Below, piece by piece: positions 1 to 4,287 of a DNA stretch of 4,287 bases (position 1 is the stretch's first letter; each line of letters begins with the position of its first letter). The notes beneath the pieces are model-generated. The model was given only the letters and a program-made list of their open reading frames with translations. It had not been told where the DNA came from and made no database searches. Source of the stretch: a virus (taxonomy: Duplodnaviria > Heunggongvirae > Uroviricota > Caudoviricetes); the IMG/VR virus record IMGVR_UViG_2547132274_000008, positions 1 through 4,287 of that record; one strand, written 5' to 3'. The position numbers and the translations under genes are program-made.

Positions 1-5
1 GTTTC

Positions 6-581
6 ATGATGCAAATTAAAAAAATCACCAGTCCCCGCTACACCGAGTCCGGTGCGATTGACTGCGACGTGCTGTTTGAAGGAATGGAAGACCCGCTTCC
101 GTACACAGCCACGCCAGAAGACACCGCGACGACAGGTCAGCAAATCTGGCAGGAACTGCAAAGCGGCAAATGGGGAGAAATCGCCACGTTCACTGTCACG
201 CCGGAACTTATCGCCGCGGCGAAGGATGCCAAAAAACGAGAAATCGAGCTCTGGCGCACAGAACAGGAAGCGCAGCCGTTCACGTTCGAATGGAACGGTC
301 ACGCCTGGAACGGCGGTGCAGACTCAATAAGTCGTATTGCGCCTGTGGCAATGGCTGCAAAGGTGGCAGGTACGCGGTCAACGCTTGGATGGGGGGATGC
401 AGCAAATAACCTTGTCACACTGACAATGGCGCAGATTCAGGAGCTGGCAGCCGCGATGGCACAGGCGCAGATTGATCGCAATGACGAGATTTATCGCCGT
501 CAGCGACAGATGAAGAACGTGCTGGATAGCCTTAATAATCTTGCCGACATCCGCGCTTTTCAGGCTGGAGAGTCAGAATGA
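6..581 (+). CDS. Putative phage tail-fibre assembly / tail assembly chaperone-like protein (DUF4376-like C-terminal block); function tentative
   Basis: 191-aa ORF with ATG at 6 and a second in-frame ATG at 9. Codon usage is enterobacterial-like, with G/C-preferred third positions (acg, gcg, ccg, ctg). Its TGA stop overlaps the next start (ATGA at 578-581). The C-terminal segment WGDAANNLVTLTMAQIQELAAAMAQAQIDRNDEIYRRQRQMKNVLDSLNNLADIRAF resembles, from memory, the conserved C-terminal block of DUF4376 tail-fibre assembly/chaperone proteins. Only 5 nt precede the ATG and there is no in-frame stop in them, so the true start and RBS may lie upstream of the window. Confidence 0.7.
   Translation: MMQIKKITSPRYTESGAIDCDVLFEGMEDPLPYTATPEDTATTGQQIWQELQSGKWGEIATFTVTPELIAAAKDAKKREIELWRTEQEAQPFTFEWNGHAWNGGADSISRIAPVAMAAKVAGTRSTLGWGDAANNLVTLTMAQIQELAAAMAQAQIDRNDEIYRRQRQMKNVLDSLNNLADIRAFQAGESE
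567..572 (+). promoter_or_regulatory. Shine-Dalgarno site (GGAGAG) for the ORF starting at 578
   Basis: GGAG core at 567-570, 7 nt upstream of ATG 578, inside the 3' end of ORF1. Consistent with translational coupling. Confidence 0.55.
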
Positions 582-1291
582 AATGGGAAAAGGCAATTCT
601 GCGCCCGTCAGCCATGAACATTAAATGCTCTGTGGTTTGCCTTCATCCATGGTCAGAAAATACCGGAAACATCAAACCATCGGGGCGTTATCTCAGCCCC
701 GAAAATGCTGTATCTGCACTTTTACCCTATCTGAAAGAAAGCACAGAAAAAGACATTGTGGCGCTATTGTTTTGCGCTCCTTCTGCTGGCGAGTTTTTAT
801 CACTCGCCAGGCAATTTTCAGGCGCATTTCCATTGCCAGAGGTGGGGCGAATGTCCCGCATGATTTCCAGTCAACTTTCACTGGCCATCAGCAGAATGCA
901 AATCCCCGCCAGACCGGCAACATCACTTCCGGAACCGATAATGCTGTCGACACAGACCACTCGCAGCATGTCGCTGGCAGCAACCATTGCACAGGCAGCC
1001 ACTCCTGCCGCCACATCACCGGAAACATTGTCATCATCGCTGCATCAGTTCATGAATGCGAGAGATAAAGCCTTGCAGGAAATCGCTGATCAGCAGGCCG
1101 CACTCCGGCAAAAATTTTGCCCGGTGTGGCGCTTTTGCTACAAGGGAGCCCTTAGCCAGGCTGCAGTGCTGATACAAAAAAACATCCCACACCCCGAGTG
1201 GGTTTTTACAGCTGTGATGCTGTTCGTCGGCGATAATCTCTCATCACTAAGGGGAGCACTACATGACCCAGATGATTGTCCTTGCGCTTGA
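578..1291 (+). CDS. Hypothetical protein, Ser/Ala/Thr/Pro-rich with a low-complexity central region; no recognisable family
   Basis: 237-aa ORF. ATG 578 overlaps the ORF1 stop (ATGA) and has a GGAG RBS at good spacing. Its 3' end overlaps the ORF3 start by 29 nt. Codon usage is noticeably poorer than its neighbours (several AGA/AGG/ATA/CTA/CGA codons), and the central segment SQLSLAISRMQIPARPATSLPEPIMLSTQTTRSMSLAATIAQAATPAATSPETLSSS is low-complexity. Kept as a CDS because of the RBS and the operon packing, but it is the least certain of the four. Confidence 0.5.
   Translation: MKWEKAILRPSAMNIKCSVVCLHPWSENTGNIKPSGRYLSPENAVSALLPYLKESTEKDIVALLFCAPSAGEFLSLARQFSGAFPLPEVGRMSRMISSQLSLAISRMQIPARPATSLPEPIMLSTQTTRSMSLAATIAQAATPAATSPETLSSSLHQFMNARDKALQEIADQQAALRQKFCPVWRFCYKGALSQAAVLIQKNIPHPEWVFTAVMLFVGDNLSSLRGALHDPDDCPCA
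1249..1256 (+). promoter_or_regulatory. Shine-Dalgarno site (AAGGGGAG) for the ORF starting at 1263
   Basis: Strong purine-rich SD 6 nt upstream of ATG 1263, embedded in the 3' end of the preceding ORF. Confidence 0.6.
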
Positions 1292-1838
1292 CGGGGAAGC
1301 CATTCTGCTGCGCAACATCACCGTCAGCGCCACCATGCAACTACCGGACAAAGATATGTCCGGACAGTCAACCAGCACCACGAGCGCCCAGCAGGGAAAC
1401 AAGGCTAAAGAGCTGCGCGTGTCGGGGGTTATTGATTTTAACGATGAAGCTATTCTGACCCGTATTTTTCAGCTTGCGGAGGCAACAGAAAGCAACGGTG
1501 CCAAAAAAACATATCGCATTGCTAACGCTACCGCGAAGGCAATCAATATGCGACAGGGGGTGTTTTCTGGTGGCATTGATGCCACGGAACAACAGGGAAA
1601 AATGCACTGGCAGATCACCTTTACTCTCAGGGAAAAATTAAGCGTGCCAGAGAAAGCATCCGCACGCAGCGGTTCGCAGAAAACCATCGCCAGACAGCAG
1701 ACCCAGAATGGCAGCGAACAGGTACCAGACAAAGGCATGAATACGCAAAGTTCGTTCTGGAAAAAAATCAATGATGCCGTTGGCTCTGGTCTGGATGCTG
1801 TTGGCATCGGGAGCGTGAAAGAGGAAGGGAAAACATGA
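1263..1838 (+). CDS. Hypothetical protein (191 aa); no recognisable family
   Basis: ATG 1263 is preceded by a strong SD (AAGGGGAG, 6-nt spacer). Codon usage is typical of enterobacterial coding sequence. The TGA stop at 1836-1838 overlaps the next start (ATGA at 1835-1838). The protein is hydrophilic and Q/S/T/K-rich, with no motif I can assign. Confidence 0.7.
   Translation: MTQMIVLALDGEAILLRNITVSATMQLPDKDMSGQSTSTTSAQQGNKAKELRVSGVIDFNDEAILTRIFQLAEATESNGAKKTYRIANATAKAINMRQGVFSGGIDATEQQGKMHWQITFTLREKLSVPEKASARSGSQKTIARQQTQNGSEQVPDKGMNTQSSFWKKINDAVGSGLDAVGIGSVKEEGKT
1821..1830 (+). promoter_or_regulatory. Shine-Dalgarno site (GAGGAAGGGA) for the ORF starting at 1835
   Basis: Purine-rich GGAAGG/AGGGA run 4-6 nt upstream of ATG 1835. 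Confidence 0.55.
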
Positions 1839-3532
1839 AATTGATACAACGCTGCATGATTAATGGCGAACGGGTGGAAATTGCCGATATAAGCCTTGTT
1901 CTTACCCTGAATGCTGCCGGTCGTGGCTTCATTTCTGTTAACAATCTGTCACCCGAACACAGCCTTGCCGGCGCAATGGTACAAATTGATCTCGGCCGTG
2001 ACGGTGAAGCATGGCGCTATTTCTCCGGCTACATTGAGCGCGATCAACCTGCTGAAAATGGCTCACGTCGCCTTTTTATTCGTGAAGCGGCTGCTGTGCT
2101 GGATTTTGATTTCCCCTGCTCCATGCAACACCCGACGTTGCGGGGGGTACTCGATAATCTGGGGCGACAAAGCGGTATCGTTTTTATCACTCCGGATGCG
2201 GATTATGCCAGTATACCAACTCCCTACATCACCCACAGCGGCAGCGGAGCACAACTGCTCAGCCAACTGGGGCGAGCATTCAGTATCAGCGATTACGTCT
2301 GGCACCCTATGCCGGACGGTTCTGTATTTGTGGGAAGCGCAGCTGATTCACGATTTGCCAGTATTACAATGCCGGATATTCCGCAACAGTACACACTCGG
2401 GCAAAGCGGCGGAAACAGCATCGACATCATGTTTATGGAAACTGTGCGACCGGGCGTGAACCTACCGGCCGGGCGCATTACCCGTGTAGCCCTCAACAAC
2501 GAGAAAATGACCCTGACATGGGAGCGCCTTACCGCCACGGGTAACCCTGTTTCCAAATCACCATTACGCAGACAAATGGAAACACAGTTCCCGGAACTGG
2601 CCAGCGGTACGCTACATACCCGGCTGGCGCGCGTCATTGCGCCAACGGAGCCCACCACCCTGGGCGATGTGGCCGACAGTTTCCGCCCACGCTACGCCGT
2701 CGATGTGCAGTTGCTTGATGAGAACGGCAACGATAAAAGCGATACGCCCGTTTACCCGGCAGTACCGCTCCCCGTCCCCATGGCTGGCAGTGAGGCGGGA
2801 TGTTTTGCCTACCCGCCGGCTGGCACCATCGTGGAAATATCCAACATTGAAGGACGACCGGATAAACCTGTCATCAGGCAAATCTTACCCGCTGGTCATA
2901 ACCTGCCTGATGTAAAGCCCGGCGAACAATTGCAACAACAGCGCGCAGAAGTGTTTCAGCGTGTCACGACTGACGGAAGCTGGCACAGAGAAACCGACCA
3001 GCAAATCAGGGAGCATTCAGCCAGGCGAACCATTAACAGCGATCAGGAAGAACGCACAACAACAACCAGAACAACAACAGTACAGGCAAACGACATAACC
3101 AGCGTTCTGGGAACCAGCAAGCTGATGACAGGTCAGACAGAACACATTACTACTGGCCATTATGCGATCGCAGCCGGTGAGCATATCCAGATGGTAGCGC
3201 AGGATTTGCTGACTAAACTCAAAGGGGCGACATCCACCATCGAGCATAACCTCACCGAAAACGTGGGAGGCCGCAGAACATGCCGGGCGGACGGCGGCCT
3301 GGAATTTACCGCCCCGACTGTATTTATTGGGCGCGGTGGCTCACGGGAAAAATCCGGACTTAATCTGCTGACGTTGTTGATTGATATTCTGGATCTGGTT
3401 CAGTTGCTGGCCACACACACTGCAAACCACACCCACAGCAACACTGGCGCACCAACAAACAGCAGCGAACTTGCCGCAGACGCCCAACAGGCTACGAGCC
3501 TGCGCGAAAAATACGGCGACCTTATCGCCTAA
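1835..3532 (+). CDS. Hypothetical large protein (565 aa); possibly a phage structural spike/baseplate-like protein or a novel accessory protein; function unassigned
   Basis: Longest ORF in the window. ATG 1835 is coupled to the upstream stop and has an SD. Codon usage is good throughout. The TAA stop at 3530-3532 is followed about 40 nt later by a hairpin with a T-tract. C-terminal features include a Thr-rich stretch ERTTTTRTTTV, a segment with glycines every 7-8 residues (SVLGTSKLMTGQTEHITTGHYAIAAGEH) and the His-rich motif ATHTANHTHSNTG near the end. The embedded overlapping ORFs on both strands are treated as shadow ORFs. Confidence 0.75.
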   Translation: MKLIQRCMINGERVEIADISLVLTLNAAGRGFISVNNLSPEHSLAGAMVQIDLGRDGEAWRYFSGYIERDQPAENGSRRLFIREAAAVLDFDFPCSMQHPTLRGVLDNLGRQSGIVFITPDADYASIPTPYITHSGSGAQLLSQLGRAFSISDYVWHPMPDGSVFVGSAADSRFASITMPDIPQQYTLGQSGGNSIDIMFMETVRPGVNLPAGRITRVALNNEKMTLTWERLTATGNPVSKSPLRRQMETQFPELASGTLHTRLARVIAPTEPTTLGDVADSFRPRYAVDVQLLDENGNDKSDTPVYPAVPLPVPMAGSEAGCFAYPPAGTIVEISNIEGRPDKPVIRQILPAGHNLPDVKPGEQLQQQRAEVFQRVTTDGSWHRETDQQIREHSARRTINSDQEERTTTTRTTTVQANDITSVLGTSKLMTGQTEHITTGHYAIAAGEHIQMVAQDLLTKLKGATSTIEHNLTENVGGRRTCRADGGLEFTAPTVFIGRGGSREKSGLNLLTLLIDILDLVQLLATHTANHTHSNTGAPTNSSELAADAQQATSLREKYGDLIA

Positions 3533-3570
3533 TCACCGGGCATAAAATCCACATAAACGCCCCATCACGC

Positions 3571-3596
3571 AACGCACGGTTCAGGCCGTGCGTTTT
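3571..3596 (+). terminator. Candidate rho-independent terminator for the four-gene operon
   Basis: Inverted repeat AACGCACGG (3571-3579) / CCGTGCGTT (3586-3594) with loop TTCAGG, followed by TTTT (3593-3596) then CAT. The T-tract is short, so this is a moderate-strength terminator at best. Confidence 0.45.
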
Positions 3597-3655
3597 CATA
3601 TCTGCCACCTGATTAATGCGTTCTGCGTGCCATTCCGGCGCTGTATGCGCACACC

Positions 3656-3693
3656 ACGTAAACGGTGTGACGTAAAGCGTGAGGTGACGTAAA
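3656..3693. repeat. Three direct repeats of ACGTAAA (two extended to GTGACGTAAA)
   Basis: ACGTAAA at 3656-3662, 3669-3675 and 3687-3693. The second and third copies share the longer unit GTGACGTAAA (3666-3675 and 3684-3693). Read directly from the sequence. Confidence 0.6.
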
Positions 3694-3799
3694 CCGCGCT
3701 ACCCCCTCCAACCCGCGGGTTTTGTCTCGAAACACTTTTTCAGTTTTCTGCCGTGCAAAAATGACCGCCAGCCCGCGCAGCAACTGAGGGAAAAGCGAA

Positions 3800-4057
3800 G
3801 ATCTGAAATTTCACGTTTTGAAATTTTTTGCAGTTTTCAGAGGGATTTTTACGATCTCATGAATGGCAAGAGAAAGAAAACAGGCTGATATTAAAAGAGT
3901 TTTTATACTTTACGTGGGACAAGACACGATCGCGAAAGGATCGCGTTAAACAACCCTCAAACAAAGAAGCCCGACGTAGCGCGGCCTGCGCAAAATCAAG
4001 AGTCAGAATTAAACTGAAAAAAGGATCAATACCGCGCCTCGATCGCACATGACGATC
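3800..4057. other. Dense cluster of GATC (Dam methylation) sites in non-coding DNA
   Basis: By manual count, GATC occurs at 3800, 3853, 3928, 3939, 4024, 4041 and 4054, which is 7 sites in 258 bp. The preceding roughly 3.8 kb holds 8 sites (474, 1088, 1613, 1988, 2042, 3041, 3166, 3392). Confidence 0.6.
3804..3813. repeat. Perfect 10-bp palindrome TGAAATTTCA with an adjacent TGAAAT half-site copy
   Basis: TGAAATTTCA at 3804-3813 is its own reverse complement. An additional TGAAAT lies at 3819-3824 within an A+T-rich stretch. Operator-like, but no cognate regulator is identifiable. Confidence 0.5.
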
Positions 4058-4074
4058 TACGCAGCAACAGGACG

Positions 4075-4097
4075 AAAAAAACCGGCGCGAACGCCGG
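4075..4097 (-). terminator. Rho-independent terminator on the minus strand
   Basis: Read on the minus strand: stem CCGGCG, UUCG tetraloop, stem CGCCGG, followed by seven T (plus-strand A-run 4075-4081; stems at 4082-4087 and 4092-4097). A GC-rich stem, a classic stable tetraloop and a U7 tract make a textbook intrinsic terminator. Confidence 0.65.
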
Positions 4098-4138
4098 CGG
4101 AAGCATGTATCAAATGCGTGACTGAATAATGTCTGCGG
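4075..4138 (-). ncRNA. Candidate small RNA (about 60-65 nt) between a minus-strand promoter and the minus-strand terminator
   Basis: A sigma70-like promoter on the minus strand (see 4145-4174) would start transcription near plus coordinate 4137-4139, and the strong terminator ends at about 4075. The predicted transcript is 5'-CGCAGACAUUAUUCAGUCACGCAUUUGAUACAUGCUUCCGCCGGCGUUCGCGCCGGUUUUUUU-3'. This is purely a sequence prediction; I do not recognise it as a known sRNA. Confidence 0.2.
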
Positions 4139-4144
4139 TCGGGA

Positions 4145-4174
4145 ATTTTACATCAGAAGGCTGATAAGTCTCAA
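4145..4174 (-). promoter_or_regulatory. Candidate sigma70 promoter on the minus strand (-35 TTGAGA, 18-bp spacer, -10 TAAAAT)
   Basis: On the minus strand, TTGAGA (plus 4169-4174) and TAAAAT (plus 4145-4150) are separated by 18 bp. Each hexamer matches consensus at 5 of 6 positions. Confidence 0.3.
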
Positions 4175-4178
4175 CGGA

Positions 4179-4208
4179 TTGAAACAAGGGAAAAAACCAG
4201 GCTAGAAT
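4179..4208 (+). promoter_or_regulatory. Candidate sigma70 promoter on the plus strand reading out of the window (-35 TTGAAA, 18-bp spacer, -10 TAGAAT)
   Basis: TTGAAA at 4179-4184 and TAGAAT at 4203-4208 with an 18-bp A-rich spacer. The predicted start is near 4215 and the target gene would lie beyond the window end. It sits back-to-back with the minus-strand promoter candidate. Confidence 0.3.
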
Positions 4209-4287
4209 TCGCGCGGGTGCCTTTCGGCTGATGGCTGGAGGGTAAACCCGAAGGCCGGATGTGGAAAGGCCCCGAGTCAACTTTAAC

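Follow-up and report, generated by a model that had tools for sequence, protein, structure and literature searches.

The right end of an HP1-like prophage

The stretch of DNA considered here, positions 1 to 4,287 of the virus record IMGVR_UViG_2547132274_000008 in IMG/VR (all 4,287 nt are called the window below), forms the right-hand end of a prophage of Escherichia coli and Escherichia albertii that is HP1-like and related to P2. Our subject is a cluster of seven GATC sites in the non-coding DNA that follows its last late gene; the cluster lies beside a predicted cos site and may be a methylation-read part of the packaging module. The late genes end with four open reading frames (ORFs) at 6-581, 578-1291, 1263-1838, and 1835-3532, with matches to a DUF4376 tail fibre, to Pfam HP1_ORF34 (ORF 1263-1838), and to a PHROG baseplate family. 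When the product of the last one was used as a tblastn query, it retrieved HP1 orf35, K139 orf39, and ESSI-2 gp01, among others. After the stop codon of this baseplate gene at 3532, the window holds, in order, a terminator, three CACGKAAA repeats, the predicted cos core, a T-rich region with the GATC sites, a minus-strand terminator, and hok.

The closest matches of the window are chromosomes of E. coli and E. albertii. A 98% identical copy in E. coli A36 forms the right end of a 36.7-kb prophage located between dmsA and serS, which carries an integrase, a cI/cox-type switch, a gpA-like replication endonuclease, ogr, a portal, and a P2-family capsid; its packaging genes encode a P2-type portal, a large terminase, and a gpM small terminase. 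Nothing is annotated in A36 from the stop at 3532 until a Hok/Gef coding sequence about 75 bp past the window end. The GATC-bearing DNA is present in 49 of 5426 complete E. coli genomes and is chromosomal every time. The phage collection matched only short parts of the window, and neither it nor the plasmid collection held a DNA-level homolog of the non-coding module.

A predicted cos module downstream of the baseplate gene

No gene separates the orf35 homolog from the genome end in HP1, HP2, K139, phiO18P, ESSI-2, or SW5, as judged from their linear records. The HP1 record stops 192 bp after the end of orf35 (position 32163); its annotation places cosL at 1-9 and attP at 251-694, followed by int. 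Both ends of the ESSI-2 record have the 15-mer CTACACCGCACCCGC, 183-198 bp past the orf35 stop. A MAFFT alignment of nine lineages pairs CTACCCCCTCCAACCCGC of the window with this terminal repeat and with the termini of SW5, whose record ends in ...CTACACCGC and starts with GCACCCGCC..., both inside the aligned core. The distance from stop to core is likewise similar, with 167 bp in the window, 192 bp in HP1, 183-198 bp in ESSI-2, and 175 bp in SW5. Given this position and the homology of the core, we predict that 3699-3716 is the cos site of an HP1-type module; an earlier candidate at 3762-3782 was displaced by the multi-lineage alignment. For a set of prophages from E. coli, E. albertii, and Edwardsiella, this gives the likely location of the cos site. 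As to the related phage SI7, its assembly is without 7 nt of the cos core that SW5 has, and an annotated small “hypothetical protein” (locus L013, 4409-4573) overlaps its non-coding cos module, probably as a false gene call.

From the arrangement of these sequences, the GATC sites are predicted to be part of a non-coding cos module of about 400 bp with terminators on both sides (Table 1). The left terminator keeps its stem but varies in its loop among relatives, and equivalents follow orf35 in SI7 and Mixta; ESSI-2, SI7, K139, CFP3, and HP1 have homologous ACG(T/G)AAA repeats ahead of the core. To the right of the core, the motif TTTTYCAGTTT has four matches in the window, against 0.29 expected, and three of them fall in the module. 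In ESSI-2-type relatives, a motif of the copy-2 type stands directly ahead of a first GATC pair. The G+C-rich block at 3762-3790 appears in relatives as a CCAGC...GCTGG dyad, and either TTTACGTG or TTTCCGTG precedes the homologous GATC site or sites in nine of nine aligned lineages. The right terminator is invariant in five hok-type relatives, and Mixta and Aeromonas P05B likewise have minus-strand terminators on the right-hand side of the module. Terminators that face the module from both sides fit a DNA-level element that is kept free of transcription.

GATC sites cluster to the right of the predicted cos core

GATC tetramers start at 3800, 3853, 3928, 3939, 4024, 4041, and 4054, which places seven sites in 258 bp, at +84 to +341 from the cos core, in the contexts aGATCt, cGATCt, cGATCg, gGATCg, gGATCa, cGATCg, and cGATCt, respectively. 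An earlier note on this DNA had counted seven sites in 3800-4057 and eight in 1-3799, and our recount gave the same figures. Since the total of 15 sites equals what shuffled sequences contain (mean, 14.5), the anomaly lies in their clustering rather than in their overall number: 15 randomly placed sites put at least seven into any 258-bp span with a P value of 0.00095. The enrichment reported in the earlier note therefore stands, but its size, 13-fold, is somewhat inflated because the edges of the interval were set exactly at the outermost GATC sites. A fairer figure is about 8-fold over the 0.9 sites that the base composition of the span predicts, and a comparison of the 755-bp non-coding tail (seven sites) with the 3532 bp of coding sequence (eight sites) gives about 4-fold. 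The region that bears the sites is A+T-rich (41% G+C), and in the A36 prophage this is the densest GATC cluster.

The pairing of sites about one helical turn apart, also remarked on before, is real: 3928/3939 has the form GATC-N7-GATC and 4041/4054 the form GATC-N9-GATC. Both pairs have a spacing of the SeqA type, that is, at least two GATC sites on one face of the DNA, about 10 or 20 bp apart. The CGATCG palindromes, in contrast, occur at only two of the seven sites (3927-3932 and 4040-4045), and it is the GATC cores, not their flanking C and G, that are conserved in relatives.

TABLE 1 Features of the last late gene and the downstream non-coding region of the window
Feature	Position	Strand	Remarks
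Final late gene (565 aa), encoding a baseplate protein homologous to that of HP1 orf35	1835..3532	+	PHROG 2258 “baseplate protein,” E = 1e-232
Intrinsic terminator of the tail/baseplate operon, left module boundary	3571..3599	+	Perfect 9-bp inverted repeat 3571-3579/3586-3594, then TTTT
Three direct CACGKAAA repeats (3655, 3669, 3686)	3655..3693	+	Candidate sites for terminase or an accessory protein
Predicted cos core (cohesive-end region), CTACCCCCTCCAACCCGC	3699..3716		Aligned with ESSI-2 and SW5 termini
TTTTTCAGTTT motif, copy 1	3736..3746	+	Same block after cos in ESSI-2-type relatives, Edwardsiella, HP1, and K139
Conserved G+C-rich block (GACCGCCAGCCCGCGCAGCAACTGAGGG)	3762..3790		Aligned across nine lineages, about 50 bp right of the core
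TTTTGCAGTTT motif, copy 2	3826..3836	+	17 bp ahead of GATC 3853
Inverted copy of CACGTAAA (TTTACGTG on the plus strand)	3909..3916	-	12 bp ahead of the GATC pair
GATC-N7-GATC pair, GATCGCGAAAGGATC	3928..3942		11 bp start to start
TTTTTCAGTTT motif, inverted, adjoining GATC 4024 (AAACTGAAAAAAGGATC)	4011..4027	-	Compare HP1 AACTGAATAGAGATC and K139 AAACTGACGATC
GATC-N9-GATC pair	4041..4057		13 bp start to start
Intrinsic terminator, right module boundary	4072..4098	-	GCCGGCG-TTCG-CGCCGGT, then TTTTTTT
Start of the hok/sok-type cargo locus	4179..4287	+	Promoter 4179-4208 (TTGAAA-18-TAGAAT); hok mRNA leader from about 4215; runs off the window end

Conservation of the GATC sites within and beyond E. 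coli

Conservation of the positions among homologous regions had been named as a check on the cluster, and the outcome was positive. We aligned seven E. coli relatives, which differ in integration site and in cargo. Their sequences are nearly invariant over 3533-3855 and variable over 3857-4027 (68% invariant columns), and the sequence shared with relatives that carry yafO cargo stops at about 4027. Every GATC column is invariant in five to seven of these relatives amid variable flanks; the probability that random 4-mers would be equally invariant is 0.007-0.018.

We extended the comparison to Enterobacterales and Pasteurellaceae, with 74 dereplicated loci that surround orf35 homologs, and found homologous pairs across genera. 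Over these loci, the density of GATC is about 0.3 per 100 bp in coding sequence, rises to 0.5-0.9 at +100 to +600, and then returns to about 0.3, the family-wide profile having its peak at +300 to +400 from the stop. The spacing was even more telling than the density: GATC-N7-GATC occurs 31 times in 51.8 kb downstream of the orf35 homologs and not once in 204 kb upstream, compared to a shuffle mean of 0.78, i.e., an excess of about 40-fold. Across genera, both tetramers of these pairs are kept, whereas the spacer and the flanks vary.

Measured from the core, GATC sites take up recurrent positions in more than 10 genera. Sites at about -82, +17, +144/+155, and +219 from the core are found in Siccibacter, Mixta, Kosakonia, Enterobacter, Morganella, and Xenorhabdus, and the same pattern to the right of the core is seen in Erwinia, Serratia, Pectobacterium, and Brenneria. 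The pair 3928/3939 of the window, which follows TTTACGTG, is the homolog of the second pair (“pair 2”) of the other genera, and the site at 3853 aligns with their first pair (“pair 1”), which follows TTTTTCAGTTTT, as a single-site remnant. Two Edwardsiella loci hold N7 pairs at the place equivalent to 4041/4054 (GATCACAGGACGATC in L019 and GATCGCTGGACGATC in L020). More distant relatives show variations on the theme: Aeromonas-type relatives have GATC at +290, +308, +320, and +430/+440, with N6 pairs; Vibrio K139/Kappa has one site 17 bp right of the core plus an N6 pair and an N17 pair, amounting to five sites in 281 bp; and Pasteurella has a pair with N9 spacing right of cos. The 23 Pseudomonas-type loci (G+C, 60-67%) served as a control and showed no enrichment, with 4.2 GATC per kb downstream versus 7.0 per kb upstream, and no N7 pair.

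A separate element with three GATC sites in the first 45 bp or so after the orf35 stop, e.g., TTGATCGGCGTAACCGATCAATAATGAATAATCGATCTG, was observed in Pectobacterium, Brenneria, and Serratia (L026, L028, L035, and L040); it is absent from the window.

A possible methylation-read packaging module

What might the conserved pairs be for? Our preferred answer, to which we assign about an even chance, is that the cluster is the part of the packaging module that Dam and SeqA read, similar in function to the pac site of phage P1 but outside the P1 pac family. The location of the sites, their motif architecture, their conservation, the geometry of the pairs, and their distribution over hosts are observations; the reader may be Dam/SeqA, and the process affected may be packaging. 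The preferred target of SeqA is hemimethylated DNA in which two GATC sites share one face of the helix at a distance of about 10 or 20 nt (PMC2912659, PMC2691817), and the conserved unit in the relatives consists of two GATC tetramers and nothing more, at distances of 10, 11, or 21 bp (N6, N7, and N17). As this conserved spacing is the geometry preferred by SeqA, a function linked to Dam/SeqA is plausible. To that extent the link to Dam and SeqA drawn in the earlier note gains support from the pair geometry and the non-random, conserved sites, whereas its further suggestion of a promoter or RNA switch does not (see below). Moreover, the pairs were kept while other phage motifs and proteins diverged, and they were not seen in the Pseudomonas-type relatives, which argues for a reader that is conserved in the hosts, such as Dam/SeqA, rather than for a co-evolving phage protein. 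E. coli has both Dam and SeqA (PMC2912659). Packaging, in turn, is suggested as the process by the position beside cos and by the neighbouring inverted cos-flanking motifs.

Mechanistically, the pairs would be hemimethylated just after replication and would then be a preferred substrate of the host SeqA. Occupancy by SeqA, or the methylation state beside cos, could time or gate the assembly of terminase or the cleavage of cos, with the outcome that mature, fully methylated genomes would be packaged. The window lineage, being without a Dam of its own, would rely on that of its host.

Several observations weigh against this proposal. Some concern the comparative evidence itself: the 74 loci are phylogenetically related, so that the counts overstate how many events were independent; for the Pseudomonas-type viral contigs, hosts were assigned from G+C content and from the query rather than stated in the records; and the N7 pair is carried by only 27 of the 74 loci. 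Others concern relatives that do without the sites. P2 has no GATC within 200 bp of cos, from which it follows that P2-family terminases in general do not need GATC; Yersinia phage YenM324 has none right of the core; several Xenorhabdus and Photorhabdus loci have zero to two sites; and Pasteurellaceae, including Pasteurella CFP3 and HP1, have only two or three. The exceptions in P2, YenM324, and Xenorhabdus/Photorhabdus indicate that the GATC feature is lineage specific and dispensable, and not universal even among Dam+ hosts. In the window itself, all GATC sites lie on one side of cos, the nearest 84 bp off, with none in 3533-3799; there is no counterpart of the +17 site seen in ESSI-2, K139, and SI7-type relatives; and the A36 prophage has no homolog of the D12 methyltransferase of ESSI-2, leaving the window lineage without its own Dam.

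It is tempting to extend the idea to the family as a whole. HP1 and K139 encode Dam-type enzymes (PMC7556043, PMC8537503), and gp35 of ESSI-2 is a D12-class methyltransferase. It is possible, though distinctly more speculative, that where the hosts are Gammaproteobacteria with Dam and SeqA, HP1-like cos phages use helically phased GATC pairs next to cos to check the methylation state at packaging. Such a checkpoint would be an independent, cos-type counterpart of P1 pac and would also give a function to the Dam enzymes of HP1, K139, ESSI-2, and their relatives. We found no description of GATC pairs at HP1-type cos sites in the literature that we searched. If the idea is true, methylation-controlled packaging reaches from one headful phage (P1) to widespread cos phages with an unrelated terminase, and phage-encoded Dam enzymes acquire a testable role. 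If, on the other hand, the sites are bound by a methylation-blind protein, the finding comes down to an ordinary cos accessory region.

Alternative explanations for the cluster

The earlier note had suggested that a neighbouring promoter or RNA is under epigenetic or phase-variable control, and clustered, conserved GATC pairs are indeed typical of Dam-dependent transcriptional switches of the pap, agn43, Mu mom, or opvAB type, which could here act on hok, on other right-end cargo, or on an unannotated RNA. Some relatives even carry a com/mom-like operon further right, and in Edwardsiella anguillarum (L020) a third GATC pair can be read about 30-45 bp ahead of a hok-leader-like start. Our results nevertheless gave this explanation no support, and we consider it unlikely: the cluster sits between two terminators, and no predicted promoter, structured RNA, or constant downstream gene was found for it. 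No sigma-70-like promoter was predicted on the plus strand of 3600-4140; the only promoter-like sites in 3400-4287 are that of hok and a divergent one at 4174-4145, and the former, as the nearest, begins 122 bp beyond the last GATC and past the terminator. Neither did any of 45 loci have a promoter at a conserved position, nor was one predicted in the modules of SI7, Mixta, and Aeromonas P05B. The non-coding region has no Ogr-type late promoter (TGT-N12-ACA), Rfam searches at a permissive threshold returned nothing in 3533-4200, and RNA folds of the two strands were not or only marginally more stable than those of shuffled sequences (z = -0.2 and -1.8). Two weak OxyR-half-site-like matches at 4029-4056 are wrongly spaced, and the scans for OxyR and pap sites, a weak test that used the consensus only, stayed at chance level (ATAG-N7-CTAT, 9 versus 9.2 expected; pap GATC box, i.e., the Lrp box, 3 versus 3.7), as did a scan for the IHF consensus. 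Finally, relatives that keep the GATC sites differ in what follows them, be it hok, hok with com/mom, hok with an acetyltransferase, a yafO pair with a nuclease, or only attP/int. A hidden gene was rejected as well: the ORFs at 3828-4052 (plus strand), 3857-4048 (minus strand), and 3613-3783 (minus strand) have no Pfam or PHROG match and suffer 1-bp indels in relatives. CI/Cox operator sites were also considered and discarded, as the immunity region of the A36 prophage holds no GATC pair.

A more serious competitor, if still a somewhat unlikely one, is that the tetramers are half-sites of a phage protein, such as the small terminase subunit or a cos-accessory factor, which would be blind to methylation, the link to Dam/SeqA hosts being coincidental. 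The module is clearly a multi-site protein-binding region, GATC-N7-GATC is an inverted-repeat arrangement that suits a dimeric protein, G is frequent before the second GATC, and the sites stand directly beside the conserved TTTTYCAGTTT and the inverted CACGTAAA. However, only the 4-bp core is conserved, with spacers and flanks free to vary, which is less than one would usually expect of a specific regulator. Moreover, lineages from Vibrio, Aeromonas, Pasteurellaceae, and Enterobacterales all keep this tetramer despite diverged motifs and proteins (orf35 products are 32-47% identical), and it is absent in the Pseudomonas-type relatives. GATC pairs in GATCT-type contexts also recall the oriC 13-mers and P1 oriR, which might point to replication rather than packaging, be it a secondary origin, a start for unwinding or for the lagging strand, or SeqA sequestration or membrane attachment of replicating circles; we hold such an element to be quite improbable. 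Phages of the P2 family replicate from a nick site inside the gpA gene, which counts against it. Although the region is A+T-rich and fits the geometry of SeqA (PMC2691817), the gpA-type endonuclease is encoded about 25 kb away in the A36 prophage, no DnaA-box array was seen, and the cluster tracks cos, not the replication genes, in all lineages. That the cluster is a mere accident of chance or composition in a functionless non-coding spacer would agree with the expected number of GATC sites in the whole window and with the relatives that have none, but it is very unlikely indeed in view of the scan statistic (P of about 0.001), the invariance of the sites amid variable flanks, the roughly 40-fold excess of N7 pairs over shuffled sequences along with their absence from the coding flanks, and the recurrence of the sites in distant genera.

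Comparison with known GATC clusters and packaging sites

If the cluster is a Dam/SeqA-read packaging element, the precedent is P1 pac, which has seven GATC hexamers and in which methylation has been proposed to control cleavage (Sternberg and Coulby, as summarized in PMC10028697). Both would be packaging-initiation sites with seven GATC in about 160-260 bp, and P1 encodes its own Dam, as do several relatives of the window prophage. However, the TGATCA/G hexamers of P1 flank the cut on both sides and lie inside pacA, whereas the sites of the window are all right of the core and have non-conserved flanks. Moreover, P1 uses a headful PacA/PacB pacase, while the window prophage has a P2-type terminase, cos-type packaging, and no Dam of its own. 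SeqA-bound clusters at oriC, the dnaA promoter, and P1 oriR resemble the window in having close GATC pairs on one face (10-11 or 21 bp) in A+T-rich non-coding DNA of hosts with Dam and SeqA, but the window cluster is at no known origin and adjoins a predicted packaging site, and the phage family replicates from inside the gpA gene.

The closest counterparts are the cos regions of HP1, K139, ESSI-2, SW5/SI7, and phiO18P, which likewise come after the orf35 homolog and before attP/int, have a homologous core, and feature ACG(T/G)AAA repeats to its left and TTTTTCAGTT-type motifs plus GATC to its right. Compared to these, the window lineage has lost the +17 GATC and retains only one site of pair 1, yet it has the highest local GATC count (seven) and carries hok cargo between the module and attP. 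The Dam switches of pap (Lrp), agn43, Mu mom, opvAB, and gtr (OxyR) share with the window conserved GATC pairs about one turn apart in non-coding DNA of mobile elements, and com/mom-like genes occur in some relatives; what sets the window cluster apart is that it has no associated promoter, regulator-site consensus, or constant downstream gene and that it co-varies with cos rather than with any operon. As a functional analogy only, lambda cosB/cosQ is also a multi-site protein-binding region that flanks the nick site and is needed for terminase assembly, but it has no sequence relationship to the module of the window. GATC methylation is not known to play a part in lambda cos function.

The hok locus, the cargo hot spot, and other features of the prophage family

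The cargo locus at the end of the window has a partial match to Rfam RF01794 at 4215-4287, which is cut by the window end and, at 20 bits, lies below the threshold. The segment 4187-4287 is common to about 1100 E. coli genomes and to many Stx phages. Divergent from hok, a candidate minus-strand RNA of about 65 nt could run from the promoter-like sequence at 4174-4145 (TTGAGA-18-TAAAAT) to the terminator at 4098-4072; its body (4100-4140) is invariant in five hok-type relatives, and its promoter is not conserved in two of the five.

More generally, the DNA between the cos module and attP, right of about 4028, is a cargo hot spot (loci L001-L007). It holds hok alone; hok, TM2, and a com/mom-like methyltransferase; hok and com/mom; hok and a serine acetyltransferase; or a YafO toxin pair with an ATP-dependent nuclease. 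In the same interval of ESSI-2 (L012), a LexA-box-like palindrome, TACTGTGTTTATATACAGT, precedes a small ORF. Prophages of this family occupy chromosomal sites at dmsA/serS, raiA/bamD, and copA. The differing sites, together with com/mom in some relatives, had raised the idea of a Mu-like transposable phage with mom-type control, which was rejected in view of the integrase and the P2/HP1-type replication and head genes of the prophage. Directly after its gpA-like replication gene, the A36 prophage (L008, 18170-19448) encodes ParM and a partition/stability protein, which suggests either an option for plasmid-like maintenance or acquired cargo.

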